The translations under genes and the position numbers were made by a program. The notes below the pieces were generated by a model, which saw nothing but the letters and a program-made list of their open reading frames with translations, was not told where the DNA came from and did not search any database. Below are positions 1 to 14,128 of a stretch of DNA of 14,128 bases, in pieces (position 1 is the first letter of the stretch; the number at the start of each line of letters is the position of its first letter). Source of the stretch: Candidatus Heimdallarchaeota archaeon (GTDB lineage Archaea; Asgardarchaeota; Heimdallarchaeia; Heimdallarchaeales; Heimdallarchaeaceae); contig DXJF01000154.1 in the NCBI GenBank assembly GCA_019057375.1, positions 1-14,128 on the forward strand, given 5' to 3'.

Positions 1-375
1 GTAAATCCTTTAAACCTCGATATTGTTCGCAAGTGGGCGAATGAAAATGGTGTTAGTCCTATTTTTATTCTTCCAGGTTTTAAAAAATTTTACAAAACTT
101 TTCAAAATTACAATGACGTAATTCTAATAGATCCTCAAATATACGATGATATCGCTATTCTAGAATATGCTAGACAATTTAGAGCACCAATTCTCTCTAA
201 CGATAAATATAGGGAATTTAGAAAAATGTTTTATGATCTAGACTTTAATAGAGTCTTCCCCTTTGTTATAGAAAGAGGGAGATTGATGACAAACGCAGTC
301 GAACATCTACCTCTGCAAAGAATAGATTTTCCGTCTTTGTCCACTATTAATGAGTACTTGGGAGGTTTCAATTAA
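1..375 (+). CDS. NYN/PIN-domain ribonuclease, Zc3h12a/Regnase (PRORP-like NYN) family; 5'-truncated by the window edge
   Basis: Frame 1 is open from base 1 to TAA at 373-375: VNPLNLDIVRKWANENGVSPIFILPGFKKFYKTFQNYNDVILIDPQIYDDIAILEYARQFRAPILSNDKYREFRKMFYDLDFNRVFPFVIERGRLMTNAVEHLPLQRIDFPSLSTINEYLGGFN*. YDD (142-150) followed by ILSNDKYREF (SND at 196-204) matches the acidic YDD...SNDxYRD pattern of Regnase-type NYN nucleases. The stop overlaps the viperin ATG (TAATG). Not in the ORF track because the start lies outside the window. Confidence 0.75.
   Translation, partial: VNPLNLDIVRKWANENGVSPIFILPGFKKFYKTFQNYNDVILIDPQIYDDIAILEYARQFRAPILSNDKYREFRKMFYDLDFNRVFPFVIERGRLMTNAVEHLPLQRIDFPSLSTINEYLGGFN
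361..366 (+). promoter_or_regulatory. Shine-Dalgarno site for viperin
   Basis: GGAGGT 8 nt upstream of ATG 375, inside the last codons of the NYN gene. Confidence 0.65.
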
Positions 376-1259
376 TGGGTTGCGAACAAAAACATCTCAA
401 TCATACAAATGAATACTTTCCATTGGTCAGTGTGAACTGGCATTTATGGCCTCGTTGCTTGAATAACTGTAAGTTCTGTTTTGGAACCTTCAACGAGATT
501 AAATCTGTTTTGACTAAAGAAGAAGCATTGAGAATACCATCTGTCCTTAAATCTGCAGGAACAGAGAAATTATCTTTTACTGGTGGGGAACCATTACTCT
601 GTCCTCATTTGGGAGATTTAATCATAGAAGCTAAGAATCTTGATTTGACTACAATGCTGATTACAAGTGGTTCTTTATTAACAAAGAAATTTATCGAAGA
701 GTACAGTTCTTACATTGATTGGATCGCTTTAAGTGTAGATAGCTCAAATGAAGAGACACAATATAAACTTGGAAGAGGTTCTGGAAATCATATCCAAAAA
801 ATTAAAGAAATAGTACAAGATATTCATATAGCTGGTATCAATCTTAAAATAAACACAGTTGTTACTAGTTTGAACTGGGAAGAAGAGATGTCTGAATTGA
901 TTAGGGAGCTTAGTCCTCAAAGGTGGAAAGTATTTCAAGTTTTATCAGTTAAAGGACAAAATGATGACTATTTTCAATCTCTTCAAATTTCCAATAAGCA
1001 ATTTGAGACCTTCATTAGTATGCATAAAAATCTAAATCCAGTTGCTGAAAATAATAAAATTATGAGAGGATCCTATCTAATGCTTGATGCACTTGGGAGA
1101 TTCTTTCAGAACTCTAAAGGATATCTAGAATATAGCAACTCTATTTTAGGAACTAATCCACAAGAAGCTTTAGATAAAGTTGGATGGGATTATCAAAAAT
1201 TCCTGAAGAGAGGAGGAAATTATAATTGGAATTTAAAAATGAAGGAGGAGCTGTTCTAA
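375..1259 (+). CDS. pVip: Prokaryotic viperin (RSAD2-like radical SAM ddhNTP synthase), antiviral
   Basis: SVNWHLWPRCLNNCKFCF (CxxxCxxC at 456-479), KLSFTGGEP, DWIALSVDS, KINTVV, RWKVFQVL, GQND, ENN..MRGSYLMLDALGRFF and C-terminal KFLKRGGNYNW. This is the full viperin motif series and differs from MoaA. GGAGG RBS at 361-365. Confidence 0.93.
   Translation: MGCEQKHLNHTNEYFPLVSVNWHLWPRCLNNCKFCFGTFNEIKSVLTKEEALRIPSVLKSAGTEKLSFTGGEPLLCPHLGDLIIEAKNLDLTTMLITSGSLLTKKFIEEYSSYIDWIALSVDSSNEETQYKLGRGSGNHIQKIKEIVQDIHIAGINLKINTVVTSLNWEEEMSELIRELSPQRWKVFQVLSVKGQNDDYFQSLQISNKQFETFISMHKNLNPVAENNKIMRGSYLMLDALGRFFQNSKGYLEYSNSILGTNPQEALDKVGWDYQKFLKRGGNYNWNLKMKEELF
1241..1250 (+). promoter_or_regulatory. Shine-Dalgarno site for the helicase
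   Basis: GAAGGAGGAG within the viperin 3' end, 10 nt upstream of ATG 1261. Confidence 0.6.
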
Positions 1260-1260
1260 T

Positions 1261-4014
1261 ATGGCATATTTATACTATGAAAATCTACCTGATGTCTATT
1301 CATCAGAAGTTGCTATTTCAATTATGTCAAACACTTATAATGCAGTAAAACCTTACATAGATTTCATAGAAAAAATTAGAATATCTGAAAAAAGAAAGAT
1401 AATTAGTTTAATAGTCGACTATTTTCCTTTAGAAGATCTTCTTGCAGAGGAAAGAGAATTAATTAGAAATCAGATGGATGAAGAATTAAAGGAAGATGAA
1501 TATGAAATAGAAAGAAATTATTCAAAACAACTTAAACGAGTTATTAAGCTAGTTAACAAAGGAGAAGGAGTGCTTTATAAAATTCTTGAAGATGAAGATG
1601 ATGAGGGTTTTGATAGAAAAAAGGAGCGATTCTTGAATGCTGAAAAAGTATACCCCAATAGAAGTCTTCGGAGTCCAAAAAGAATAGAAGTACTAACCAG
1701 CTATTCACCATATGATATACTTGTATTAAAATCTAAAGATCTTAAAGGTGATAATACGCGAAGAAGATTATTTCTACGTGCTAATCTTTCACAATATGGC
1801 ATTATACGAGATTCTTTAGAACAACTACTGAACAAACCTGTTTCTCATAATCGCAATCTAATAAGATTATTTGAGAATACTAACAATGTAAAATTTAATA
1901 ATTTTACACCTATTAAACTAAATGAAGACGAATGGATTTTTCTAACAGATAACAATCGATCTGGTAATTCAATGCAAAGAGAATTTGTAGAAATAGCTCT
2001 TAATACACCTGATTATGCAATTCTTGAGGGACCACCTGGTTCTGGAAAAACAACAACAATATGTGAACTAATATTTCAAGCACTAAAACAAGGTAAACGC
2101 ATACTACTAGTTGCTTCTACCCACGTAGCAGTTGATAATGTATTAGAAAAATTAATGGATGAAAAAACTGATTTATACAATACCATCAATAATGTTGTTC
2201 TACCCATACGTATTGGTCGAACAGATAGAATTTCTGATCAAGCTTCAAAATATCATTTAGATGCATTTTGGTTAAGTAAGAGTGAAGAATTACGAAATAA
2301 GATATCTAGAATAAAAGACAAAACAAAATCACAAAGAATGTTTTTAGAATTGCTAAATAATCGAAATTTGTATCCTCCTGAATATTCAAAAAGAGTTTTT
2401 GTACGCGCAGCCAATCTTGTATGTGGAACAACAATCGGTATTTTGAAACATCCTGAGATTCAGAAGCTTCAAAGACAAAATAAAGTTACAAATAAACCAT
2501 ACGATTACCTGATTTTGGATGAAGCAAGTAAAACAACTTTCCAAGAATTCTTGGTACCTGCATTACTAGCAGAGAAATTTATCATTGTAGGAGACGTTAA
2601 ACAGCTAGCACCTTTTGTAGATGAGGAAGGTGTTACGGGTAATGTGTCAATGGCACACCCAAATGAAGGTGAATTTATAGCTCTTATTAACAATATTAGA
2701 AATGCTCAAAATTCTCATAAAAAACCAATTAAATGTCTTAAAGTCCTTAATAAAAATCTGACATCTGTAAATGAAGATAAAATTCTTGCACTCGAAAAAG
2801 CTTTTAGTATACCAATTTACCTTTTGAAAGAAAATCAAGAAATAGACAAAACCAAACTGTTTGGTTCTACATTAATCATGGGAACAATAAATGCAATTAG
2901 CAATTACTCTCGTATATTGCCACTTGGAATTAATTGGATAAGTCTAGATGATTCTCAAATAATTCATATAAGTGAGTCAAAATTTCTAAAAAATATCAAG
3001 CAATTCCAAAGAAAGCATTCATATGTAAAAAATAAACTGGAAAACCATAATAACGCTTTTTCTAATGATGAGAATTGGAATGATGCAGTAAGTTGGAGAT
3101 TGATAAGGGATTTCGAGTTAAGGAATCTAAACGATGATAGATATTTAAAACAGATTGAGCATTTGCTTCCAAACTACATGGATGAAAAAGAGCGAACTAA
3201 AATTCTGAAAGTATTAAACCAAATTAAACGACTTTCCTTCCCCTCAATTATAGAGTTACTTCAGAAGGGTTTTGAGAGAAATAGAAAACAAATAGAGAAA
3301 GATATAGGTTTAAGCATAACAGACGGTCTTTCTAAAACAGTTCTCAAAAGTAGACACAGAATTCTGAAGTTTCAACATAGAATGCATCCTGAGATTTCTT
3401 CATTTCCGCGGACAAATTTGTATGACAAAGAAGCATTATTCGATCTACCTGATATTCAAAATGATAGGGTTTTCTCTTATGATAACTATAGTAATAGATC
3501 TCTTTGGATTGATGTGCAGCTATCTAGTAAAGAAAAGAGGAAAATGAAGAAGAATAAAAATGAGAAAGAAGCTCAAGTAATTGTAAATGAAATAAAGGAA
3601 TTATTGGATTTTACAAAAGATTACAAAAAACCAGATAATTCTCCTTGGGAGATTGCGATTTTGCCTTTTTATAATTCTCAAGAAAGCCTTATTAGAAAAA
3701 AACTTCAATCAATGTTTAAAACCCGTAGAATCAGAACATTTTACGCGAAAAATAAGAATGCTATTATTGAATTATGTGTTGTGGATCGATTTCAAGGACA
3801 TGAAGCTGATATTGTTTTTCTTTCTCTTGTAAAGAACAGGGGTTTAGGTTTCTTAGATACCCCTAATCGACTAAATGTTGCTCTTACTAGAGCTAAGTAT
3901 CAATTACTTATTGTTGGAAATAAGAATCATTTCAGCAATCAAAAAAGATCAGAACTACTAAGGAAATTAGCTGTGGAAACTCCAAAGAAAATGAGTTATG
4001 GTGATGTTGAATGA
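1261..4014 (+). CDS. SF1B helicase, UPF1/DNA2-NAM7 family (AAA_11 + AAA_12), Mokosh MkoA/MkoC-like helicase lacking a kinase domain
   Basis: Walker A GPPGSGKT (2029-2052), ASTHVAVDN (Ia), CGTTIG, LILDEAS (Walker B, 2518-2529), IVGDVKQLAP (III), QHRMHPEI (3373-3396), VVDRFQGHEADIV (V), NRLNVALTRAK (VI). GAAGGAGGAG RBS at 1241-1250. Confidence 0.92.
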   Translation: MAYLYYENLPDVYSSEVAISIMSNTYNAVKPYIDFIEKIRISEKRKIISLIVDYFPLEDLLAEERELIRNQMDEELKEDEYEIERNYSKQLKRVIKLVNKGEGVLYKILEDEDDEGFDRKKERFLNAEKVYPNRSLRSPKRIEVLTSYSPYDILVLKSKDLKGDNTRRRLFLRANLSQYGIIRDSLEQLLNKPVSHNRNLIRLFENTNNVKFNNFTPIKLNEDEWIFLTDNNRSGNSMQREFVEIALNTPDYAILEGPPGSGKTTTICELIFQALKQGKRILLVASTHVAVDNVLEKLMDEKTDLYNTINNVVLPIRIGRTDRISDQASKYHLDAFWLSKSEELRNKISRIKDKTKSQRMFLELLNNRNLYPPEYSKRVFVRAANLVCGTTIGILKHPEIQKLQRQNKVTNKPYDYLILDEASKTTFQEFLVPALLAEKFIIVGDVKQLAPFVDEEGVTGNVSMAHPNEGEFIALINNIRNAQNSHKKPIKCLKVLNKNLTSVNEDKILALEKAFSIPIYLLKENQEIDKTKLFGSTLIMGTINAISNYSRILPLGINWISLDDSQIIHISESKFLKNIKQFQRKHSYVKNKLENHNNAFSNDENWNDAVSWRLIRDFELRNLNDDRYLKQIEHLLPNYMDEKERTKILKVLNQIKRLSFPSIIELLQKGFERNRKQIEKDIGLSITDGLSKTVLKSRHRILKFQHRMHPEISSFPRTNLYDKEALFDLPDIQNDRVFSYDNYSNRSLWIDVQLSSKEKRKMKKNKNEKEAQVIVNEIKELLDFTKDYKKPDNSPWEIAILPFYNSQESLIRKKLQSMFKTRRIRTFYAKNKNAIIELCVVDRFQGHEADIVFLSLVKNRGLGFLDTPNRLNVALTRAKYQLLIVGNKNHFSNQKRSELLRKLAVETPKKMSYGDVE
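4000..4005 (+). promoter_or_regulatory. Archaeal-type Shine-Dalgarno site (GGTGAT) for the 367 aa gene
   Basis: GGTGAT 5 nt before ATG 4011, complementary to the AUCACC of the 16S 3' end. This form is commonly used in archaea. Confidence 0.55.
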
Positions 4015-5114
4015 AAATTAGAATGAAGAAAGTAGTACCTATAAATGTTTATGAGGTAAATATGACCGTTTTTATTAGTGAAAAGAGACCTGAAATTCTA
4101 CCTATAATTCAAGCAGTTAATGAAGCGAATGAAAAGGGTAAAGCAGCTATTAAATATCTTAGTGAAGTACTTTTTATTGGTTTTCCCTTAAAATTTTCAG
4201 AAAATATCCTTGAGGAGTTGAAATTGCTTGAACTTGTAAACGAAAACGGAGAACTAACACCAAGAGGGTATGAATCTCTAACTACAAGTAACATAATGGA
4301 ACCAGATAAAGGTTCTTTTCAGATTAAAGTCGTAAACGATCCTCTTATTCCTAGCTGTATTATTGCTGTAAAACAATTAGATCCTAATGCCCGAAAAGAA
4401 ATTTTCAGTTCAAAAGAGAAGAGAGAAGAAAAGAAAATTCAGATACCAAAACACATTGTTAGTCAAAAAGGAAATCGATTTAAAACCCTTGATGAGAGAC
4501 AAACTCTAATTGATGTCCAAGAAATCGCTCCACGAGGTTCAATAGATAGAAGTGTTCAAGAAAAACTTGAGTATTATCTGTCTTTTGAAGGAAATGATTG
4601 GAAAGCAGAGGTTAGATATCGAAATAAATCTATTAGTCTTGAAGTTCCTGAATCCTTTGATGGAACTGCGATTATCAACTCTTTGCTTTTCTCTATCCAA
4701 AAGAACGTTGACATTTCCACATGGCGTGTACCACAGACCCCTTCTGCGTTAACAACTAAGGAATTACTGAATTTTATTAAGGATTTTCAGCTTAAAAAAA
4801 TAGAAATTCAAAACATAGGAATTTTTGATACCATAACTCTTAGAGATGTGTCAATATGTCCAGAGGATAATAAAACAGCAAAAGAATGGGCAATGAAGAT
4901 TTTTACTGAAACCCTCTCCAATTATCTTATTGATAGAGAATATCTGGTGAAATGGGGAGAAATAATTAATCAAAATAATGAATTGAAGAAGTTTCAAATA
5001 GAAATCCCATCTATGCATGAAGTTTTATCAAATTTAGATCCTGGGTCAAAAAAGTATTGGTTTTTACAGGCCCCATTTGACTTGAAATTAAATGAGTTGA
5101 TAATAAATGATTAA
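4011..5114 (+). CDS. Hypothetical protein with a possible N-terminal winged-helix; accessory subunit of the helicase-PLD module
   Basis: 367 aa ORF with ATGA overlap with the helicase stop, GGTGAT SD at 4000-4005 and an 8-nt overlap with the PLD gene. The segment NILEELKLLELVNENGELTPRGYESL resembles a wHTH recognition helix plus wing. No catalytic motif recognised. Confidence 0.7.
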   Translation: MKIRMKKVVPINVYEVNMTVFISEKRPEILPIIQAVNEANEKGKAAIKYLSEVLFIGFPLKFSENILEELKLLELVNENGELTPRGYESLTTSNIMEPDKGSFQIKVVNDPLIPSCIIAVKQLDPNARKEIFSSKEKREEKKIQIPKHIVSQKGNRFKTLDERQTLIDVQEIAPRGSIDRSVQEKLEYYLSFEGNDWKAEVRYRNKSISLEVPESFDGTAIINSLLFSIQKNVDISTWRVPQTPSALTTKELLNFIKDFQLKKIEIQNIGIFDTITLRDVSICPEDNKTAKEWAMKIFTETLSNYLIDREYLVKWGEIINQNNELKKFQIEIPSMHEVLSNLDPGSKKYWFLQAPFDLKLNELIIND

Positions 5115-6630
5115 AACAGAAATTTTGACTAAAATTGTTGAACAAAATACCGAAATTCCTTCTCATTGGAGGATTATAAATACTGACGATTATTCTCTCC
5201 CCTCCACTCGAAGAATAATTCCTATGGGTAATGGAAATCAAAAATTTAAGAAACTTCTAATCGATTCAATTAATGATGCTACAAGCCATGTGATGCTATG
5301 TTCTTTCCTTTTAAGTGATCAAGATATAATAGACAGTCTACTCAAGGCAAGTGATAAGGGTGTAAGATGTTATCTTATGTTTTCTACAGAGGCTCAACTT
5401 TCGAAAGAATATAAAGAAGAAGTTTCTGATTTTGATTTGCATGTTTTAAACAAGCATAAAGAAATGCTAGATAAATTAGCTGGTAAAGCACTAACTAGAA
5501 CTAGTGATCATTTACATGCAAAATTCCTTCTAATTGATGTAGGAACAGAAAAAGAAGAAGGTTACATGTCAACAGCTAATTTTACACAGGAAGCTTTGAC
5601 AAGAAATGAAGAGGTTGGAATTGTACTAAAGAAGACTGAAATAAAGACTATTGCTCATTTCTTCAATGTAGGTTTCTGGGAAGAAAGCAAAAATGAACTT
5701 ATTAGAAAAGGATCTTGGGATGATGTAAGAAATTTAGATATCAAAACTATTGAGAGCAATTCCGAAGTTGTTTTTACAACTTCAAAAGACAGAGGAATGA
5801 AGGAAAGAATAAAAGAGATTATTGTTGGAGCAGATAATGAACTCTTAGTGAGTAGTTTTGGATTTGGAGAAAACAATGATCTTGTAAAATTATTGATTAA
5901 ACATTCTGAACAGAGGAAGCTATCAATCCTAACAAGACCTAGAGAAAAAACTCATAACTTCTTATCAAAAATAGAAAAAGAAAACACTGTAGCATATGCT
6001 TTTCCATTCTTACATGTTAAAATGATTCTAGATCCAGCAAAGAGGATAGGAATTATTATGACTGCAAACTTTGAAGATAGGGGAATGGAAACAGGATATG
6101 AAGTTGGTATAGTGGTTCAAAATGAAGACTTTGATGAAGCACTACATATATTTCAAAATTGGATTGAGTCAGCATCTATGATGTGGAACAGCTCAACTAA
6201 ATTGTCGTTTCTAGATGAAGGATTAATCAGAGTTCCTAAAGGTAGATCATTGGAACAAAAAGAAGTAAAAAACTATAGTGAAATAGATATGCCCCAAGAA
6301 AAACCAAATGATTTGCGATTAATGCAAAAATTAGTTTCTAAGACTCTTGAATATGAAGTCAAAAAAAGTGATATTCTAATAAAAGAAATGAGACTCAAAA
6401 AAGAAATATTACCTCCTAGGCTACCTGAAAGTGCCCAAGAAGTGATTTTTAGTGATCTTTTTTTATCAAAGAAACAGAAGAGTAAAGGAGAAAAACTTGA
6501 GTTTAAATTTCCATTTAAGACATATCTATACCAAGGGCAGTATTATGTTGTCATCAAGAAATGGGCTGATTTAGAAAGAATAAGTTCTTTTCCAGATTTC
6601 AAAAAACACACAAAGATAGTAATTAAGTAA
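5107..6630 (+). CDS. Phospholipase D-superfamily nuclease with two PLD domains (MkoB-like)
   Basis: First domain: ...HVMLCSFLLSD...GVRCYLM...HAKFLLID (canonical HxKxxxxD, 5515-5538)...STANFT...NEEVG. Second domain: LLVSSFGFG...HVKMILD (HxKxxxD, 6013-6033)...MTANF...YEVGI. About 150 C-terminal aa unassigned. Confidence 0.88.
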   Translation: MIKTEILTKIVEQNTEIPSHWRIINTDDYSLPSTRRIIPMGNGNQKFKKLLIDSINDATSHVMLCSFLLSDQDIIDSLLKASDKGVRCYLMFSTEAQLSKEYKEEVSDFDLHVLNKHKEMLDKLAGKALTRTSDHLHAKFLLIDVGTEKEEGYMSTANFTQEALTRNEEVGIVLKKTEIKTIAHFFNVGFWEESKNELIRKGSWDDVRNLDIKTIESNSEVVFTTSKDRGMKERIKEIIVGADNELLVSSFGFGENNDLVKLLIKHSEQRKLSILTRPREKTHNFLSKIEKENTVAYAFPFLHVKMILDPAKRIGIIMTANFEDRGMETGYEVGIVVQNEDFDEALHIFQNWIESASMMWNSSTKLSFLDEGLIRVPKGRSLEQKEVKNYSEIDMPQEKPNDLRLMQKLVSKTLEYEVKKSDILIKEMRLKKEILPPRLPESAQEVIFSDLFLSKKQKSKGEKLEFKFPFKTYLYQGQYYVVIKKWADLERISSFPDFKKHTKIVIK

Positions 6631-6641
6631 AACAAATAGCT

Positions 6642-7748
6642 CTATATAAAAAAGTCAATTTTCTTTTGTTTTTTATCAGATGGAAATGATACGGTTTTTA
6701 TTCTTTCTTTAAATTCATTAGGAATATATTTTTCTATGTTTTTTGAGAATTTTGGAGCAAATAAATAATATTCAATATTTGATGTATCTATATTGAAACG
6801 TTCTCGAAGTTTATGTAACCATTTTGCATATCTTATAACTTGTTCAATTTCTCCTTTTCCTGCTTGTTTATTCTTAAGTTCTATAATTACATTAGGTAAT
6901 GTTCCTTCTGCAATTTCCTGTTCTCCATAATAACATACATCAGCTCTGTCCATCTGATATGATTTAAAAGGAGAGATGGGAACTTGACGTAAAATATTCA
7001 TTTTTAGAGGTTTTAATTCATCAGGCAATAAATTAGGATTGGCAATGATTGTTGCTTCCAACTGTGCTTCGATTTCTGCTATATGTAAATCTTGTATGGA
7101 AAATGAAGTTGAATACTCTTTCATTTTACCTTGTAGTTTGACATCCTCAATCATTTCATACTCCTCTGTTCCTTCATTATTCTCAGTTAGGAGATTAAGT
7201 AAAATTCTAGTTTCTCCAGGGGTCATTATGCAAAATCCCATATTCATTATACTAATAGATGGTAGAGGATAAGGATATCTCCCTAATTCAAAGTAAAGAA
7301 CATCAGAAGTAATGAAATTACCTTGAATCCCAATATTATCCTCAAATCTAATTAAGAAATGTTGACATCTTTCTGTTTCATTGAAAATAAAGATTCCCTT
7401 ATCTTTTGTTTCCTTATATCTAGTTCTTATTGATTCATCCCAAACTAATTGTGCATTTGCCTTCCTACCTATAGGACCATAGTTACCATTAACAAAAAAT
7501 GATGGCTCTGTTCCTTCACCTTTGATCTGACCTCCATAGTAGATTTTTCTTTTCAGAAAGAAGAAAACATGATCTCCTTCTCTACAACATGCATAATCTG
7601 CCATTGTTCGATAATAAACTCTTTTTGAACCTCTAGTTTCTATATGCGGGGGTAAATGTTGTCCATATATTCCTTTATTTAGATAGAGTTTCAAAGTTTC
7701 GATATCATAAAGTGTGATAAAAAGTCCCTTTTGTGACAAATGAATCAA
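6642..7748 (-). CDS. EVE/PUA-like domain fused to a NucS/EndoMS-like PD-(D/E)xK endonuclease; putative modification-dependent (type IV-like) restriction or repair nuclease
   Basis: C-terminal half has EAQLEATIIANPNLL, RQ, ADV, IIELK (ELK at 6873-6881) and IEQVIRY, typical of NucS-like PD-(D/E)xK domains. N-terminal half (LYLNKGIYG...CREGDHVFFF..RKIYYGGQI...F..LDVLYFE-like segment) resembles EVE/PUA. Start is TTG (7748-7746) with an in-frame stop at 7769-7767. Confidence 0.72.
   Translation of the reverse strand: MIHLSQKGLFITLYDIETLKLYLNKGIYGQHLPPHIETRGSKRVYYRTMADYACCREGDHVFFFLKRKIYYGGQIKGEGTEPSFFVNGNYGPIGRKANAQLVWDESIRTRYKETKDKGIFIFNETERCQHFLIRFEDNIGIQGNFITSDVLYFELGRYPYPLPSISIMNMGFCIMTPGETRILLNLLTENNEGTEEYEMIEDVKLQGKMKEYSTSFSIQDLHIAEIEAQLEATIIANPNLLPDELKPLKMNILRQVPISPFKSYQMDRADVCYYGEQEIAEGTLPNVIIELKNKQAGKGEIEQVIRYAKWLHKLRERFNIDTSNIEYYLFAPKFSKNIEKYIPNEFKERIKTVSFPSDKKQKKIDFFI
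6659..6674 (+). terminator. Putative archaeal oligo-T terminator of the viperin/helicase/PLD operon
   Basis: TTTTCTTTTGTTTTTT begins 29 nt after the PLD stop (6630). It lies antisense to the KKQKK codons of the convergent nuclease gene. Confidence 0.3.
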
Positions 7749-7905
7749 CTTAAGTACACAAATCGTTCAATTAAATATTGTTCTAGTTACTTTAAACTTA
7801 CCTCTAAATTAAATATCAATTTAAGTAATAATATGTAGGGAACACTGAAAAACAATCTTAAATAGTGAAAAAAAATTGTAAATTTAGTTCTAGGGTAGAT
7901 AATTC

Positions 7906-8826
7906 ATGAACAACAATCCTCAAAAAAATGGTCAAAATAGCAGACCGAAGCAATCTCGTTTAACTTCTTATATCTCTAATGGAGAGAATACTAGGGAAAT
8001 TGAGTACGCAATTCTTGCCCATCCTATTGTTAAGTGGGCAGGAGGAAAAAGAGGATTAATTGAGAAGTATAAACCATATTTACCTAAGGATTTCAATAAA
8101 TACTATGAACCGTTTTTTGGTGGGGGAGCTATATTCTTTCATCTCTTTTCGATTGGTAGAGTAAAAGAAGCTAAAATTTCTGATATTAATTCCGAACTTG
8201 TCAATATGTATAAAGTAGTCAAAACTAAGGTTGATGATTTAGTAGAAGAGCTTAAATCAGGAAAATATTTAAATGATAAAGATATTTTTTACGAAATTAG
8301 AGCTGAAGAACCAGAAGAGCCTGTTCTAAGAGCTGCACGCTTAATTTACCTAAATCGAACATGTTTCAATGGTCTTTATAGAGTTAATAAACAAGGAAAA
8401 TTCAATGTTCCATTTGGAAAATACCCGAAAAACGTTAAGATCTTGAATGAAGAAAATCTAAGAAATGTGAATCAATGTCTACAGGATGTTGAATTAACAT
8501 CTGAAGATTTCGAAAAATCTGTTAAAGATGCAAAGGAAGGAGACTTTGTTTATTTTGATCCACCATATATGCCTTTAACTGAGACAGCTAATTTCACAGA
8601 TTATACCTCTAAAGGTTTTGGAATAAAGGAACAAGAAAGACTAGCTAAAGTATTCAAAGAACTAGATGAAAGAGGGTGTTATGTTATGGAAAGCAATTCT
8701 GACGTTCCTAAAATTGCTGAGTTATACGAAGGATATGAAATCAAGAAAGTTCATGCAAGAAGATTCATTAGTAGTGATCCTAATGGGAGAGGAGGAGTTC
8801 TAGAATCTTTGATTTTGAATTATTAG
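7906..8826 (+). CDS. dam: Dam/DpnM-family N6-adenine DNA methyltransferase (D12 class, likely GATC)
   Basis: PIVKWAGGKR, YYEPFFGGGAIFF (motif I), ISDINSEL, YLNRTCFNGLYRVNKQGKFNVPFGKY (Dam-type target-recognition segment), DFVYFDPPY (DPPY at 8557-8568), VMESNS. It has a ~30 aa N/Q-rich N-terminal extension. Confidence 0.93.
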   Translation: MNNNPQKNGQNSRPKQSRLTSYISNGENTREIEYAILAHPIVKWAGGKRGLIEKYKPYLPKDFNKYYEPFFGGGAIFFHLFSIGRVKEAKISDINSELVNMYKVVKTKVDDLVEELKSGKYLNDKDIFYEIRAEEPEEPVLRAARLIYLNRTCFNGLYRVNKQGKFNVPFGKYPKNVKILNEENLRNVNQCLQDVELTSEDFEKSVKDAKEGDFVYFDPPYMPLTETANFTDYTSKGFGIKEQERLAKVFKELDERGCYVMESNSDVPKIAELYEGYEIKKVHARRFISSDPNGRGGVLESLILNY

Positions 8827-8827
8827 C

Positions 8828-9700
8828 TTAAAGAATCTCATTATTTTTGGAACTATACTTGAATTTTGTAATGTTTTCATCATCTCTGGGTTTTCTAAAA
8901 ACATATAGATGTTCATGCATGATCAAATGAAAATTGTATTTCATGCTTTGTTTCCTCCATTGAGGAGTACTTGCACAGTTCCATTGGTGTTTAATGATAT
9001 CTTCTCTCAAGATAAAACCTGTATCTAGAAAAGTTTTCAGAACATAAGCAGAAAGAGGAACATAGTGTCTGTGCTTTCGAGTGTCACCTATTAAGATAGC
9101 TAGAAACTTATCTCCTTTGAGAACACGGTAACATTCTCGAGCTATTTTCTTCATCTCGTCAGTAAAATATCTAACACTTCCAATTGATGAGAGATCTTGG
9201 AGATTGTTCTCTGAATATCTTATTATATTTAGATAGGGAGGGTGAGTACAGATTAAATCAATAGAATTATCATCAATTTTATCTAGTTTTCTAGCGTCAC
9301 CTAAGTATAAAATGTGAGAAGAATCATTGGTATTAGGAACTTGAGAAATTCTTTCTTTAGCGACTTCAAGAGGTTTCTTGTTGATGTCGACGCCAATACT
9401 ATTTCTACCTGTTAGTTTAGCTTCAATAATAGTTGTACCACTACCAACCATTGGATCTAAAACCAAATCTCCTTGCTCAGAATATCTTTCAATAACATTC
9501 CTAGGAATTTGAGGAGCAAAATTTCCTCGGTAATCTCCTTTATGAGTAGCCCATTTACCTCTATTAGGAAAAGACCAAATAGTTGTTGCTTCAAGCTCAA
9601 AATCATTTGTGTCTTGCTGATTTGTACTAGTTTCAGTTTTTAAATCAGGGTTATCTTTATAAAATTCTTTCATTCCTTTTGGACCTTCTAATTTGGGCAT
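8828..9700 (-). CDS. Amino (N4-C/N6-A) DNA methyltransferase-like, N6_N4_Mtase/TRM11-like fold
   Basis: TIWSFPNRGKWATHKGDYRGNFAPQIP, VLDPMVGSGTT (motif I, 9457-9434), GVDIN, GDAR, IDLICTHPPY (motif IV variant, 9247-9233), HEHLYVFRK. Substrate (m4C vs m6A, DNA vs RNA) cannot be fixed from the motifs. Confidence 0.82.
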   Translation of the reverse strand: MPKLEGPKGMKEFYKDNPDLKTETSTNQQDTNDFELEATTIWSFPNRGKWATHKGDYRGNFAPQIPRNVIERYSEQGDLVLDPMVGSGTTIIEAKLTGRNSIGVDINKKPLEVAKERISQVPNTNDSSHILYLGDARKLDKIDDNSIDLICTHPPYLNIIRYSENNLQDLSSIGSVRYFTDEMKKIARECYRVLKGDKFLAILIGDTRKHRHYVPLSAYVLKTFLDTGFILREDIIKHQWNCASTPQWRKQSMKYNFHLIMHEHLYVFRKPRDDENITKFKYSSKNNEIL

Positions 9701-9892: not shown

Positions 9893-11272
9893 ATGAATAT
9901 CTTACTTGTAGAACCAAATTTTCCTGTTCCACCAAAAAGCAAGAATCATAAGGATTTTCTTCCAATTGGTCTAATGAAGCTATACAGCTATCATTTTTCT
10001 ATTGGAAATAAAGTTCAATTAGTAAGAGGTTGTGTAAGAAAAGAGGATATTTATTTTGATTCTATAGATCAAATATGGATCTCTTCACTGTTTACTTATT
10101 GGTTCTACAGTGTGCAAGAGAGCCATAACCATTATCGAAATTTGTTTCCAGATTCAACTATTCTTGTAGGAGGGATAGCTGCATCTCTCTTCCCTGAGGA
10201 GGCAAAACGAAGACTAAGTGCTGATCTTATTTTGAATGCTGGTTGGGGATCAACATTTGGTATTAAAACTAGCAATAAAAATAAAGCAAAAACAATTATT
10301 GTTAAAGGTGTAGAAGAATTTGCAGAGAATAACAAGGAAGAATCTTCCCATTTTGATTGTTTTTGTTTTAATTCATCATTGAATGCTGTTTATAAAGAAG
10401 TAGCACCTAGAATAGAATTTCAAATTATTCATGGTCAACGAGGATGTATAAGAAATTGTAAATTTTGTGGAGTTCATATTATTGAACCCCAATTCAAAGG
10501 TAAGTCAAGTATCAAAGACAGCTTGGTAAGGAAGAAGAATTTAGTATTCTATGACAACAATTTTCTTGCGGCTGTAGATAATCCAACAAGAGTCACAAAC
10601 TTGCTAAATGAGCTAATTAAACTAAAGAAATCTAATAGAATCAATTCTTGTGAATCTCAAAGTGGTTTTGATGGTAGGATACTTCTAAAAAATCCCAAAT
10701 ATGCAATAATGCTAAAAGAAGCGGGTTTCAGAAATATCAGAATAGCATGGGACGGGAGTTATGAGGAAAAGGATCATATTAGGAAACAAATAAGCATTCT
10801 TACAAAGAAAGGAAGATATAACTCAAAAGATATTTTTGTTTTTATGATTTATAACTGGGAAATTGATTACAAGGAAATGGAACAAAAAAGAAAACAATGT
10901 TGGAGGTGGGGAGTTCAGATTTCAGACTGTAGAAACAGGCCTTTAAAATTATTTGACAAACAAAACTATCGTCCCCGAATAATCGGACAAAAGAATGACG
11001 ACTATTATATTCATCCTAAATGGACAGATTCAGAAATAAAGCAGTTTAGAAGAAACATAAGAAGACAAAATATTGCGATCAGGCAGAATATAAAATTCTA
11101 TTCAAAGCTTTGCGAGCAGAAGAAAATAGATAGAGAAAAAACAAGAGAATTGAATTCTTTGTCAACGTCAGAGGCTAAAACTTATGCAAAACAACATGAT
11201 ATTGATCTTTGGTTTCCAGGTAGAAAAACTGAACCTATTTCAAATACGAAATTGTTTGATTCTCATGTGTAA
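9893..11272 (+). CDS. Radical SAM protein with an N-terminal cobalamin-binding-like domain; function unknown
   Basis: N-terminal ILLVEP..P...LPIGLMKL...IWISSLFT.W...ILVGGIAASLFPE is the Rossmann-type B12-binding-like pattern of class B radical SAM enzymes. RGCIRNCKFC (CxxxCxxC at 10445-10468), VFYDNNFLA, GFDGRIL, IRIAWD. Confidence 0.85.
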   Translation: MNILLVEPNFPVPPKSKNHKDFLPIGLMKLYSYHFSIGNKVQLVRGCVRKEDIYFDSIDQIWISSLFTYWFYSVQESHNHYRNLFPDSTILVGGIAASLFPEEAKRRLSADLILNAGWGSTFGIKTSNKNKAKTIIVKGVEEFAENNKEESSHFDCFCFNSSLNAVYKEVAPRIEFQIIHGQRGCIRNCKFCGVHIIEPQFKGKSSIKDSLVRKKNLVFYDNNFLAAVDNPTRVTNLLNELIKLKKSNRINSCESQSGFDGRILLKNPKYAIMLKEAGFRNIRIAWDGSYEEKDHIRKQISILTKKGRYNSKDIFVFMIYNWEIDYKEMEQKRKQCWRWGVQISDCRNRPLKLFDKQNYRPRIIGQKNDDYYIHPKWTDSEIKQFRRNIRRQNIAIRQNIKFYSKLCEQKKIDREKTRELNSLSTSEAKTYAKQHDIDLWFPGRKTEPISNTKLFDSHV

Positions 11273-11278
11273 AATGAT

Positions 11279-13891
11279 TTATTGTTTCACTCTTTGAATT
11301 GAAATTATTCTATAAAGACCTCTAGAAATTCTTTCATACAAAATTGTTTCTTCAAAACTCCATTCTTTCATCATTCTTTCTTTTCTTAAAATAGCCTTTA
11401 CTATTTGTTTAATAAATTTACCAACTTTTCGATGTAAAACTCTTAATTTACTAATTTCCAAATGCATTGAAACATAGTCTTCAGATATTATATGATCATT
11501 TATAACTTCACCAATTAAACGGAGATCGTCCTGAACTTGAGGTCCAATAACACTACCTCTTATCCACGAATATACTGTTTGTATGGTTTTCTTACCCCCT
11601 TTACTCTTATAACAGTTGTAGAATTCTTTATATGTTATCTCGTTATATTCAATATATTCACTTGTTCTTTTCTTCCAGTATTCTATAAATTCCTTATCTA
11701 TATTTTCTTCGAAACTATATGTATCTAAAATTGTATCAAGAAGTGTTTTTCTCTCATCTCCTCCAAGGAGAACAATTAACTCGCCTGGTTTGAGATTTTT
11801 AGGTGTAATTTCTATAATACTTCCATCGTCTTCATCTATTGTTAAAAATGTTTTATTAATGTCTAAATACTTTGTTATTATTCCTTCGTCTCCTTCTTTT
11901 TTAAGTAGAACTTGATAAGATAAACTAGTTCTTGTTTTAGATATTTCTTTTTCTACTTGATTTAAAATCTCTTTTGATATCTTATCAAGTGATTTTTGAT
12001 CATTTTCGTATTCTCGCAAATCATCATAATTATTTGTTGAACTAAATATGTTATTAATAATTTCATTGATTGCTGGTAGCTCATTATGAATAGAAATTTT
12101 ATCATTAATTTCTTCGTCTTCAATGTCCCCCTCACTTGATTTTATCTTAATAAATTGTTCCTGTTCCAGTTCCTGTTCCTCTAAAGTGTTTTCATCTTTT
12201 TGGATAAATTCATCAAGAATTTCATTGTTAGTAATTTTTAAATACCTAAATATTTCTTGTAAATAGTTGATAGCTTTTTCTTGTTTAGCTAGAGTAAAAT
12301 CAGAAATTAGGTTAATTTGTTTTTTTGCAATATCATAATTTAATCCTTCATATGCTAAAATAATTATTTTGTTATATGGTCTTAATAATTCTGAAAGGTA
12401 ATTGAATCTTATTGGACCAGGAAGTATCAATATGCAATTTTTTCTTTCAAAAATTGAATTATATATCTCCTTCATAGTAAAAACTCTAATATTAGTATTA
12501 TCTTTGAAATATTCTCTAATCCTATTTCTTTCATAAGGTGAATTAGTTGAAATTATTATATCTTTTTGATCAAGTTCAGAAACTAATTCTCTTAATTTAG
12601 TTTCCTTGGAAGTTCTTTCATAGCTTGTAATTTCATTAAATCTCTTTACTTCCTTTAATTCACTATATAAGTTAAATGCATAATCACAGATTTTCTCTAA
12701 TATTTTTGAATTTTTATTAGATTCTTCTGTAGTTGCATCATTTGTTAGTTCAATTATCTGTGGAATTGACAGGTATCTTAGTTCTCCTTTACGGGATAAA
12801 AATAATGTTTTAAATTTAGAAGGATTTAATACCATATTTTGAAGATTATTTACTATTTTGAGAAGTGTATAAACCTTTAAACCATTTTTCAAAGATTCTT
12901 TATCAATTAAAGCTCTTAATTTCTTGATTTCGAGGTAATAAAAGTCAATATTTCCCCCTTTTAAAGTTGGTTCTAAAACTGATATGTTTTCCTTATGTTC
13001 ATAATCGCTTTTTGAATCTAAATTATATGCATTAAGTAAGGACCAATTTATATTTGAAATTTCATTTTCTTGATAATATTCTAATGATTTTTCCCTTAAC
13101 ATTCTATTCATGGATATGAACTTATTTCCAAGAGGAAGTACAAAACAATTGAATTCCCTTTTTAAGTTCTCAATAAATGAAGACTCAGGATTTGAGAAAT
13201 GAAAAACAAATCGAAAATCTAATTTCTTATATTTTTGCAGCCACTTTACAAATTCATTGTATTTGTAATTTGAGTGTACAAATCGGTCAACATTCTCAAT
13301 AATACAAAGATCTGTCTTAATTGTAGCTTTTTTATCAATTATCTCGTCTTCAACTTCCAAGCTTTCAATGTTTTCTGCTATTCTTGATTTCTCTTCAGAA
13401 TTATCAAATAGTAGTTTAGCTGTTTCAGTTTTTGCTAGATTATCTTTTAAGAATTTTATGTATTGTTCTCTATATGTTTTTGTTATCCATTTAGAATATA
13501 ATTTCACGGAAATTGTTGAATTTTCAACACAACCAACTGGATAATTCATAAAATAAAAGTGATTATATGAATCTTGTAACAAAGTAAAATTTTTGACGTG
13601 AAGGTCAATTGGGCGTTTTGAAATTGAACTATTTTTTTGACTCAGAACATAGACAGACTTATTACAAGTTTTCAAATAAAGCAATGTTATTAGAGCTAGA
13701 GGTTTTAAAATAGAGGAGTTATAAACAATTATTAAGTTATTATTAGTAATTACTCTGAAGAAAATATTCAATAAGAAATTTGTAACAGGGCTTAGGTTGT
13801 AAGATATTTTTATGATTTTTGGATAATTATTTCTACTTCTAGGTTCAAATCTGTAAACATCATTTATAAATTTATCATGCCATGAACTCAT
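11279..13891 (-). CDS. DrmE-like large protein (degenerate helicase-like N-terminus, acidic linker, DrmE-type C-terminal domain)
   Basis: 870 aa. The C-terminal pattern LKPGELIV...YWKKR...FY..YK.KGG..T.QTVYSWIRGSVIGP...DLRLIG...I.KLRVLHR resembles DrmE-family C-termini as recalled. Walker-B-like CIIENVDRF but no Walker A. Acidic linker EEQELEQEQ...EGDIEDEE. GAGGAG RBS at 13907-13902. Confidence 0.6.
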   Translation of the reverse strand: MSSWHDKFINDVYRFEPRSRNNYPKIIKISYNLSPVTNFLLNIFFRVITNNNLIIVYNSSILKPLALITLLYLKTCNKSVYVLSQKNSSISKRPIDLHVKNFTLLQDSYNHFYFMNYPVGCVENSTISVKLYSKWITKTYREQYIKFLKDNLAKTETAKLLFDNSEEKSRIAENIESLEVEDEIIDKKATIKTDLCIIENVDRFVHSNYKYNEFVKWLQKYKKLDFRFVFHFSNPESSFIENLKREFNCFVLPLGNKFISMNRMLREKSLEYYQENEISNINWSLLNAYNLDSKSDYEHKENISVLEPTLKGGNIDFYYLEIKKLRALIDKESLKNGLKVYTLLKIVNNLQNMVLNPSKFKTLFLSRKGELRYLSIPQIIELTNDATTEESNKNSKILEKICDYAFNLYSELKEVKRFNEITSYERTSKETKLRELVSELDQKDIIISTNSPYERNRIREYFKDNTNIRVFTMKEIYNSIFERKNCILILPGPIRFNYLSELLRPYNKIIILAYEGLNYDIAKKQINLISDFTLAKQEKAINYLQEIFRYLKITNNEILDEFIQKDENTLEEQELEQEQFIKIKSSEGDIEDEEINDKISIHNELPAINEIINNIFSSTNNYDDLREYENDQKSLDKISKEILNQVEKEISKTRTSLSYQVLLKKEGDEGIITKYLDINKTFLTIDEDDGSIIEITPKNLKPGELIVLLGGDERKTLLDTILDTYSFEENIDKEFIEYWKKRTSEYIEYNEITYKEFYNCYKSKGGKKTIQTVYSWIRGSVIGPQVQDDLRLIGEVINDHIISEDYVSMHLEISKLRVLHRKVGKFIKQIVKAILRKERMMKEWSFEETILYERISRGLYRIISIQRVKQ

Positions 13892-14128
13892 TTTCTATAA
13901 TCTCCTCAGAAACTAAAATCAAATAATCGAAGATTTTTGAAACATCCCGCGCTAGGGTCCCTTTAACAGTTATACCAAGTTCAAAATTCTTCATGAATGA
14001 ATTTTTTCTTATTTCACCACTCCCGATATAAACAGTTTTTTTATCTATTATCATGATTTTTGCATGGGTGCTACTTGCTAAATATCCATTTTGCTGATGA
14101 TAATAATTATAGATTCTAAAATTGTAAA
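13875..14128 (-). CDS. PLD-family nuclease (DrmC/Nuc-like), C-terminal part; 5' end outside the window
   Basis: Manual translation of the minus strand from 14126: YNFRIYNYYHQQNGYLASSTHAKIMIIDKKTVYIGSGEIRKNSFMKNFELGITVKGTLARDVSKIFDYLILVSEEIIENEFMA* (TGA at 13877-13875). HxKxxxxD at 14066-14043, then YIGS and NFELGI. Overlaps the DrmE-like ATG by 17 nt. Not in the ORF track. Confidence 0.85.
   Translation of the reverse strand, partial: YNFRIYNYYHQQNGYLASSTHAKIMIIDKKTVYIGSGEIRKNSFMKNFELGITVKGTLARDVSKIFDYLILVSEEIIENEFMA

Follow-up and report, generated by a model that had tools for sequence, protein, structure and literature searches.

Clamp-peptide-like terminal tails on a Dam-linked methylase and nuclease cassette of a Heimdallarchaeaceae archaeon

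Introduction

The gene cassette described here lies on contig DXJF01000154.1 of a Heimdallarchaeaceae archaeon. It comprises a Dam-family N6-adenine DNA methyltransferase (Dam or M1), a second methyltransferase (M2) and a nuclease, and each of the three proteins carries at one terminus a short motif that recalls, to differing degrees, the PCNA-interacting peptide (PIP) box of proteins that bind the sliding clamp. The window analysed is the entire contig (C109), 14.1 kb in length (14,128 nucleotides), and its features are collected in Table 1. Four groups of described enzymes resemble the cassette in part.

DpnII/MboI: These restriction-modification (R-M) systems join two GATC methylases, one of the Dam class (M1) and one of the N4/N6 class (M2), to one nuclease. 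The cassette has a comparable composition, with two methylases, one of the Dam family and one of the PF01555 type, beside a single nuclease, in a genome in which GATC is depleted. In contrast, the nuclease of the cassette is unrelated and matches no Pfam family, the DpnII family included, the motif order of its M2 is I then IV, and its archaeal members have PIP tails.

DNMT1: The eukaryotic methyltransferase DNMT1 has a PIP box in its disordered N-terminal region and is coupled to PCNA. The PIP box of the window Dam likewise lies in a disordered N-terminal extension, which by analogy suggests methylation behind the replication fork. However, Dam is an N6-adenine enzyme of a class unrelated to that of the C5-cytosine enzyme DNMT1, and its gene is accessory and mobile. 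Since the motif appears to have arisen separately in different archaea, at one terminus or the other, the likeness to DNMT1 points to convergence and not to ancestry.

NucS/EndoMS: NucS binds to PCNA by means of a PIP at its C-terminus that follows its nuclease domain (PMC4929162). The C-terminal PD-(D/E)xK domain of the window nuclease is homologous to that of NucS/EndoMS (Pyrococcus abyssi 2vld, Thermococcus kodakarensis 5gke) by fold and weakly by sequence, and in both a disordered clamp-peptide tail stands directly after the nuclease domain, the tail of the window nuclease being a predicted one. In contrast, the N-terminal half of the window nuclease is PUA-like rather than the NucS DNA-binding domain, and its gene belongs to a methylase cassette.

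MspJI, AspBHI, and VcaM4I: These are modification-dependent restriction enzymes of the PUA superfamily (PMC6765204, PMC7897488, PMC7641849). The window nuclease resembles them in combining an N-terminal PUA-like reader with a C-terminal nuclease. Pairing with methylases is not obligatory for those enzymes, whereas the cassette nuclease family is paired almost always, and this near-obligate pairing argues against cleavage that depends on the modification made by its partners.

A search of the literature found no description of a clamp-adapted R-M cassette with replication-coupled adenine methylation. Three features of the present locus are new: its nuclease partner bears a clamp motif, the motifs occur in the context of a cassette, and archaeal members differ from bacterial ones.

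Terminal motifs of the cassette proteins

A first-pass annotation of the contig, made from its letters alone, had proposed PIP-box-like motifs on the termini of the three enzymes, and direct reading of the sequence bears out all three at the positions given in Table 1. It had regarded a bacterial host as fatal to the idea. The host is an archaeon: the metagenome-assembled genome (3.47 Mb, 89% complete) belongs to the Heimdallarchaeaceae, and the nearest relatives of Dam and M2 come from Heimdallarchaeaceae or Heimdallarchaeum. A single PCNA gene is present in the genome (a PCNA_N match on contig C47, 55.8 bits), and the DNA_pol3_beta profile of the bacterial beta clamp (DnaN) has no match in it, while the same profile gives a signal in 10 control bacteria.

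Dam: The window Dam scores 301 bits against TIGR00571 (cut-off 115), its catalytic motif D218-P-P-Y221 is invariant, and its Pfam D12 domain begins at residue 44. An N-terminal extension of 30–40 residues is present in all 23 Dams of the Heimdall clade, a set made up of the window protein and 22 homologues at 53–93% identity, and is missing from more distant Dams. Within this extension an aligned Q-x-x-[LFIV]-x-x-[FY] is retained in 22 of the 23 sequences with surroundings that diverge entirely, as in QSRLSKFY, QYRLTKFM, QPRFTQFV, QTSLSGYF, QTFIESYI, and QARLDKYL. Conservation of the motif amid diverging flanks was the check suggested by the first-pass annotation, and Dam passes it clearly. 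The seven residues upstream of the motif have a mean net charge of +2.1, a basic flank that fits the known effect of flanks on PCNA affinity, which is raised by basic ones (PMC6881253). In the predicted structure of the window Dam, residues 1–15 and 25–32 have a predicted local distance difference test score (pLDDT) below 50, and the motif between them (residues 16–23) shows as a brief structured blip.

Outside the Heimdall clade the motif is found at the C-terminus of cassette Dams. Halobacteria have GQQGLADF, QKGLADFS, QQRIGDFS, and QLKLQNY, and Thorarchaeota have QTRIDEF, with VQTSLDEF and LQLRLDQF in homologues, each of these directly before the stop codon. Methanomassiliicoccales have QQVLTEY. 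The archaeal motifs thus span at least four lineages and two placements, the N- or the C-terminus. A terminal motif occurs in 12 of the 17 archaeal Dams against none of the 10 bacterial Dams (Fisher p = 3.6e-4, for loci that are not phylogenetically independent).

Nuclease: The nuclease reading frame, read directly, ends in ...SDKKQKKIDFFI followed by TAG, and bases 6668–6645 encode QKKIDFFI. This peptide (Q1-x-x-I4-x-x-F7-I8) fits the relaxed archaeal PIP pattern, agrees, as does QSRLTSYI of Dam, with Q-x-x-[LIM]-x-x-[FYW]-[FYWLI], and resembles the QKDLSCFI that ends the genome's own PolB. PIPs are usually placed at the extreme terminus of a protein (PMC3504372). Residues 361–368, which form the motif, are predicted to be disordered (pLDDT <50). 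In the homologues, the tail past the last conserved strand is variable and 0–26 residues long. Q-x-x-[LIMVF] is present in 61 of 120 homologue tails, more than 5-fold over shuffled tails (mean 11.8, maximum 23), and Q-x-[ST]-L in 33 of the 120 against a shuffle mean of 2.1. Q-x-[ST]-L makes up the first half of QSTLDSFF, the archaeal consensus PIP peptide (PMC4929162). Among taxonomically labelled loci, a Q-x-x-L-type tail is found in 8–9 of 14 archaeal members and in none of 13 bacterial members.

Ends of the form Q-x-T-L-stop are common among the nuclease homologues, above all the acidic, haloarchaeal-type ones (within P0002–P0120, and at loci L036, L037, and L063). In the same haloarchaeal genomes FEN1 retains a full QxGLDxW motif, unlike the half-motif tails of the nucleases.

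M2: Residues P7–Y14 of M2 read PKGMKEFY (9682–9659, direct read). M-x-x-[FYCI]-[YFH] is present in all 15 M2 sequences of the Heimdall clade, the window included, with an invariant Met; the motif sits 26–37 residues before the core, and the residues upstream of the Met are not conserved. In three of the Heimdall-clade M2s the invariant Met is the first residue of the open reading frame (ORF). Because of these three ORFs and the unconserved upstream residues, the true start of M2 is probably Met10 at 9673. The first-pass annotation had itself called this motif weak. Its M-x-x-F-Y spacing proves to be conserved, and its standing as a PIP box suffers from the missing Gln, an acidic flank, a score at noise level, and a Met that is probably the initiator. 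A regular-expression search of the M2 termini at the cassette loci found little, the pattern being too strict. The C-terminal tail of M2 (...KFKYSSKNNEIL) was also considered as a PIP and was rejected, since it is conserved in bacterial homologues too.

Chance level and the PIP clients of the genome

The background of the motif was estimated on a crude set of 2802 ORFs from the genome, in which the relaxed PIP pattern has a frequency of 2.4e-4 per residue. At C-termini the pattern is enriched about 5-fold (24 observed, ~5 expected). PolB (two copies), DinB, RFC-L, FEN1, Hel308, NreA, and UDG end in Q-[KT]-x-L-x-x-F-[FLI], and so do DUF72, DUF2797, metallo-beta-lactamase-fold, and HEAT-repeat proteins. 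The genome's canonical NucS, encoded by a separate gene, ends in ...AQLEDFF...

A scoring matrix was built from eight canonical PCNA clients of the same genome, whose leave-one-out scores range from 5.6 to 20.4 bits. The nuclease tail QKKIDFFI scores 10.7 bits, inside the range of true clients. Only 62 of 930,632 8-mers score as high or higher (top 6.7e-5), and 14 of these lie in C-terminal windows, where 0.9 would be expected. The Dam motif QSRLTSYI scores 3.9 bits and the M2 motif -7.2 bits. From single sequences alone, therefore, only the nuclease motif of the three exceeds chance; the Dam and M2 motifs rise above it only because they are conserved in orthologues.

Little-characterised proteins of this genome, at L002, L005, L010, L013, and L015, also have near-perfect terminal PIP boxes. 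They are proteins of the DUF2797 (GQKSLSEFF), metallo-beta-lactamase/RMMBL (QTILDSFF), HEAT-repeat (QKRITDFF), and DUF72 (QQKLADFFG) types, all with the box at the stop codon, and a PDDEXK_9 nuclease (QSIIADFF...). Such proteins are candidate new PCNA clients.

An Eco57I-like N6 methylase or type IIG-like protein (C153:17621-19591, L017) likewise ends in a PIP-like motif, with ...DAQKHISQYLVK directly before the stop codon. The idea that PIP tails are general to the DNA methylases of the genome was rejected, the Eco57I-like enzyme and the window Dam being the only two of ~19 methylase genes with a terminal PIP.

Conservation and distribution of the cassette

The cassette was surveyed at 32 loci from species-representative genomes. 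In ~29 of the 32 the nuclease adjoins a homologue of Dam, of M2, or of both, and the nuclease, Dam, and M2 thus form one conserved cassette, in agreement with the first-pass annotation, which had treated the three genes as a module. Both methylases match the PADLOC MTase_II models. The archaeal loci belong to Halobacteria, Bathyarchaeota, Thorarchaeota, Promethearchaeota, Thermoplasmatales, and Methanomassiliicoccales. The bacterial loci belong to Aminicenantes, Clostridia, Omnitrophica, Lentisphaera, Prevotellaceae, and others, and often form one operon.

The distribution of the genes is patchy. Dam is encoded by 10 of the 83 class genomes and by 3 of the 24 others in the genus, and on these counts the candidate role of Dam as a core maintenance methylase was rejected. 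For the nuclease the counts are 6 of 400 Asgard genomes and, among the other members of the family, 0 of 30 genomes. Four other Heimdall loci have the Dam-M2 pair without the nuclease; in L030–L033 the pair is convergent.

In three Heimdall genomes a conserved protein of 436–503 residues that matches no family is encoded divergently upstream of the PIP-bearing Dam (L031:6487-7815, L032:6526-8037, L033:6573-7883). Language-model comparisons give weak hints of HhH-GPD/AGOG glycosylases. This protein might act with the Dam-M2 pair as an alternative partner. In a class-level relative (L034:7523-7993 and neighbours) Dam is accompanied by a PDDEXK_11 nuclease as well as a C5 methylase and a pair of HATPase_c_3 (MORC/GHKL-like) proteins, which is a different Dam-linked defence context.

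Dam would be a GATC-type (G-m6A-TC) methylase. The one pointer to this, an indirect one, is that among the 16 palindromic 4-mers GATC shows the strongest depletion genome-wide, with an observed-to-expected ratio of 0.64, followed by GCGC (0.81) and GTAC (0.83).

Fold of the cassette nuclease

The AlphaFold model of the nuclease has a pLDDT of 91 and a predicted template modelling score (pTM) of 0.89. In Foldseek searches the C-terminal half matches NucS (2vld) and EndoMS (5gke), the N-terminal half matches the PUA-like readers THYN1 (EVE), PH1033, and YTH domains, and the whole chain matches AspBHI, MspJI, and VcaM4I. Agreement in sequence is weaker. The NCBIfam NucS equivalog aligns partially, over residues 212–345 (E 2.7e-6; score 26.6 bits, cut-off 216), and a profile search of the PDB finds NucS at E 0.0026. 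The nuclease has 506 homologues at ~50% identity, and D270...E290-x-K292 is invariant in an alignment of homologues.

The nuclease matches no Pfam family at E <= 0.01, no PADLOC restriction endonuclease model, and no plasmid or phage sequence, so that no existing name can be assigned to it. NucS itself was considered as its identity and was rejected, since the equivalog cut-off is missed, the N-terminal domain is PUA-like, and the genome has a separate NucS. This uncharacterised and widespread family is likely the third component of a Dam-linked system.

Proposed role and alternative explanations

On the evidence of the sequences and predicted structures, we lean towards a mobile R-M-type cassette whose proteins, in archaeal hosts, became PCNA clients by way of disordered terminal tails. 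Such a cassette would pair two methylases, a Dam-class adenine enzyme of GATC type and a second one of the N4/N6 class, with a PUA-like/NucS-like PD-(D/E)xK nuclease. The PCNA peptides would have been acquired on the disordered tails in archaeal hosts. In this genome the nuclease would use its C-terminal PIP and Dam its N-terminal PIP, and M2 may have a half-motif that lacks the Gln. The methylases would dock on PCNA left on new DNA and methylate it promptly, and the nuclease may be recruited or stimulated by the clamp, as is NucS/EndoMS with the same layout of a domain and then a tail. The binding of PCNA, the GATC specificity, and the cutting target of the nuclease are what we infer from these comparisons. 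Given its patchy distribution and its place in a defence island, the cassette would carry out restriction-modification coupled to the clamp and not core maintenance methylation. The maintenance-like methylation that the first-pass annotation had envisaged as a core function is not indicated for a cassette that is patchy, accessory, and placed among defence genes.

Several findings weigh against this reading. The complete PIP is found in the window nuclease only among the 120 homologues, most of which end in Q-x-T-L and a stop codon without aromatics, and about a quarter have no tail. Conservation of the nuclease motif, which the first-pass annotation had expected as it had for Dam, therefore holds for Q-x-x-[LIMVF] in 61 of the 120 tails and fails for the full motif. 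The closest homologue of the window nuclease is 56% identical, with no close orthologue, and its PUA-like domain resembles modified-base readers, which is awkward for a restriction enzyme that methylation blocks. The Dam motif lies in the top 0.2% of matrix scores and is not significant alone. The M2 motif scores at noise level, has no Gln in a neutral to acidic flank, and does not satisfy the PIP pattern. The relaxed pattern is not enriched in the first 30 residues of the ORFs (16 observed, ~20 expected), and a terminal PIP occurs in only 2 of ~19 DNA methylase genes.

One alternative is that the matches are functionless coincidences in the low-complexity, K/N/Q-rich tails of an AT-rich genome. 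The Dam and M2 motifs are insignificant in a single sequence, N-terminal patterns are not enriched genome-wide, and the full PIP of the window nuclease is unique among its homologues, all of which agree with coincidence. For Dam, however, this explanation is largely refuted by the 22 of 23 sequences that keep the motif though the flanks change. The excess of Q-x-x-L in nuclease tails over shuffles, the rank of the window tail (top 7e-5) at the exact C-terminus, and the difference between archaeal and bacterial members also speak against it, and we regard chance as very improbable. A somewhat stronger though still unlikely explanation is that the motifs are real but bind some other partner, either within the cassette (an M1-M2-R complex) or at another hub for PIP-like peptides. 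The N-terminal extensions of Dam and M2 were gained in the same Heimdall clade, the M2 motif with its missing Gln and acidic flank is unlike known PCNA binders (PMC6881253), and many nuclease tails are merely Q-x-T-L. Yet the conserved Q, the hydrophobic residue at +3, and the aromatic residue at +6 are the PIP positions of the genome's own PolB, FEN1, and RFC-L, and the Dam motif is retained at loci without the nuclease. A contact within the cassette also fits poorly with a motif that stands at either terminus according to lineage and that is absent in bacterial cassettes with the same three partners.

The remaining explanation, which we likewise consider doubtful and no more probable than a different partner, is that the nuclease alone uses PCNA through an inherited NucS-type module, as a modification-dependent (type IV-like) or repair-type enzyme, and that the methylase motifs are unrelated. 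Its fold, like that of NucS/EndoMS and of the PUA-type readers MspJI, AspBHI, and VcaM4I, would suit such an enzyme, the position of its PIP after the nuclease domain is that of NucS (PMC4929162), and Dam-M2 pairs occur without it in Heimdall genomes. However, the nuclease is almost never found without an adjoining Dam and/or M2, which marks a cognate R-M set as against a type IV enzyme that stands alone. A cutter dependent on G6mATC would be self-lethal beside Dam, and the independent gain of PIPs by the Dams of several archaeal lineages would be left unexplained.

Returning to the clamp-client cassette, an extended form of it is that the whole R-M cassette adapted to the archaeal clamp after inter-domain transfer. 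Dam PIPs would have been gained independently, at the N-terminus in the Heimdall group and at the C-terminus in Halobacteria, Thorarchaeota, and Methanomassiliicoccales, and the nuclease PIP would have been gained or kept. We give this extended form about even chances. If true, it would represent replication-coupled adenine methylation together with clamp-guided restriction, and would have arisen in convergence with the DNMT1-PCNA coupling.

Should the tails bind PCNA, the R-M enzymes of archaea would be clients of the replication clamp. This would account for the timely protection of newly copied host DNA, and a NucS-type domain would have been reused for defence. In that case the coupling of methylation to the clamp would have arisen more than once in archaea, among them the nearest relatives of eukaryotes. 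The tails of one and the same cassette, with the motif in archaea and without it in bacteria, offer a clean natural experiment.

Surrounding genes

The cassette is flanked on its left by a defence island, in which a protein of 367 residues has no family match. On its right lie a radical-SAM-like gene, a gene for a DrmE_C-domain protein, and a PLD fragment (Table 1).

Table 1. Features of the 14,128-nucleotide window, listed by position
Feature	Position	Strand	Basis or remark
NYN RNase fragment, prokaryotic viperin, MkoA-like SF1 helicase, 367-aa protein, PLD nuclease	1–6630	+	Pfam, PADLOC; defence island
Prokaryotic viperin (pVip)	375–1259	+	PADLOC 3e-83
MkoA-like (Mokosh-type) SF1 helicase	1261–4014	+	PADLOC 3e-82
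Double-PLD nuclease, 507 aa	5107–6630	+	PADLOC DrmC/MkoB-like
Cassette nuclease, 368 aa	6642–7748	-	N-terminal PUA-like (EVE/YTH/ASCH-type) and C-terminal NucS/EndoMS-like PD-(D/E)xK domain
C-terminal PIP-box motif QKKIDFFI of the nuclease, at the extreme end	6645–6668	-	Matrix 10.7 bits; residues 361–368 pLDDT <50
Dam-family N6-adenine DNA methyltransferase (M1), 306 aa, 40-residue N-terminal extension	7906–8826	+	PF02086 4e-66; TIGR00571
N-terminal PIP-box motif QSRLTSYI (Q16–I23) of Dam	7951–7974	+	In disordered basic extension of Dam
Second methyltransferase M2, PF01555/"TRM11-like", with DPMVGSGTT and THPPY motifs	8828–9700	-	Pfam; PADLOC MTase_II PDLC03376 3e-82, full length
N-terminal M-K-E-F-Y motif of M2, half-PIP-like, no Gln	9659–9673	-	Conserved; matrix -7.2
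Radical-SAM-like gene	9893–11272	+	Pfam
DrmE_C-domain protein	11279–13891	-	Pfam
PLD fragment	13875–14126	-	Pfam

A contig of Methanomassiliicoccales (L049:6737-14681) is syntenic with the window, in the order Dam, nuclease, M2, radical-SAM, DrmE, and PLD. The synteny of the two contigs points to a DISARM-like system of larger extent, with an uncharacterised B12/radical-SAM-like protein among its members.

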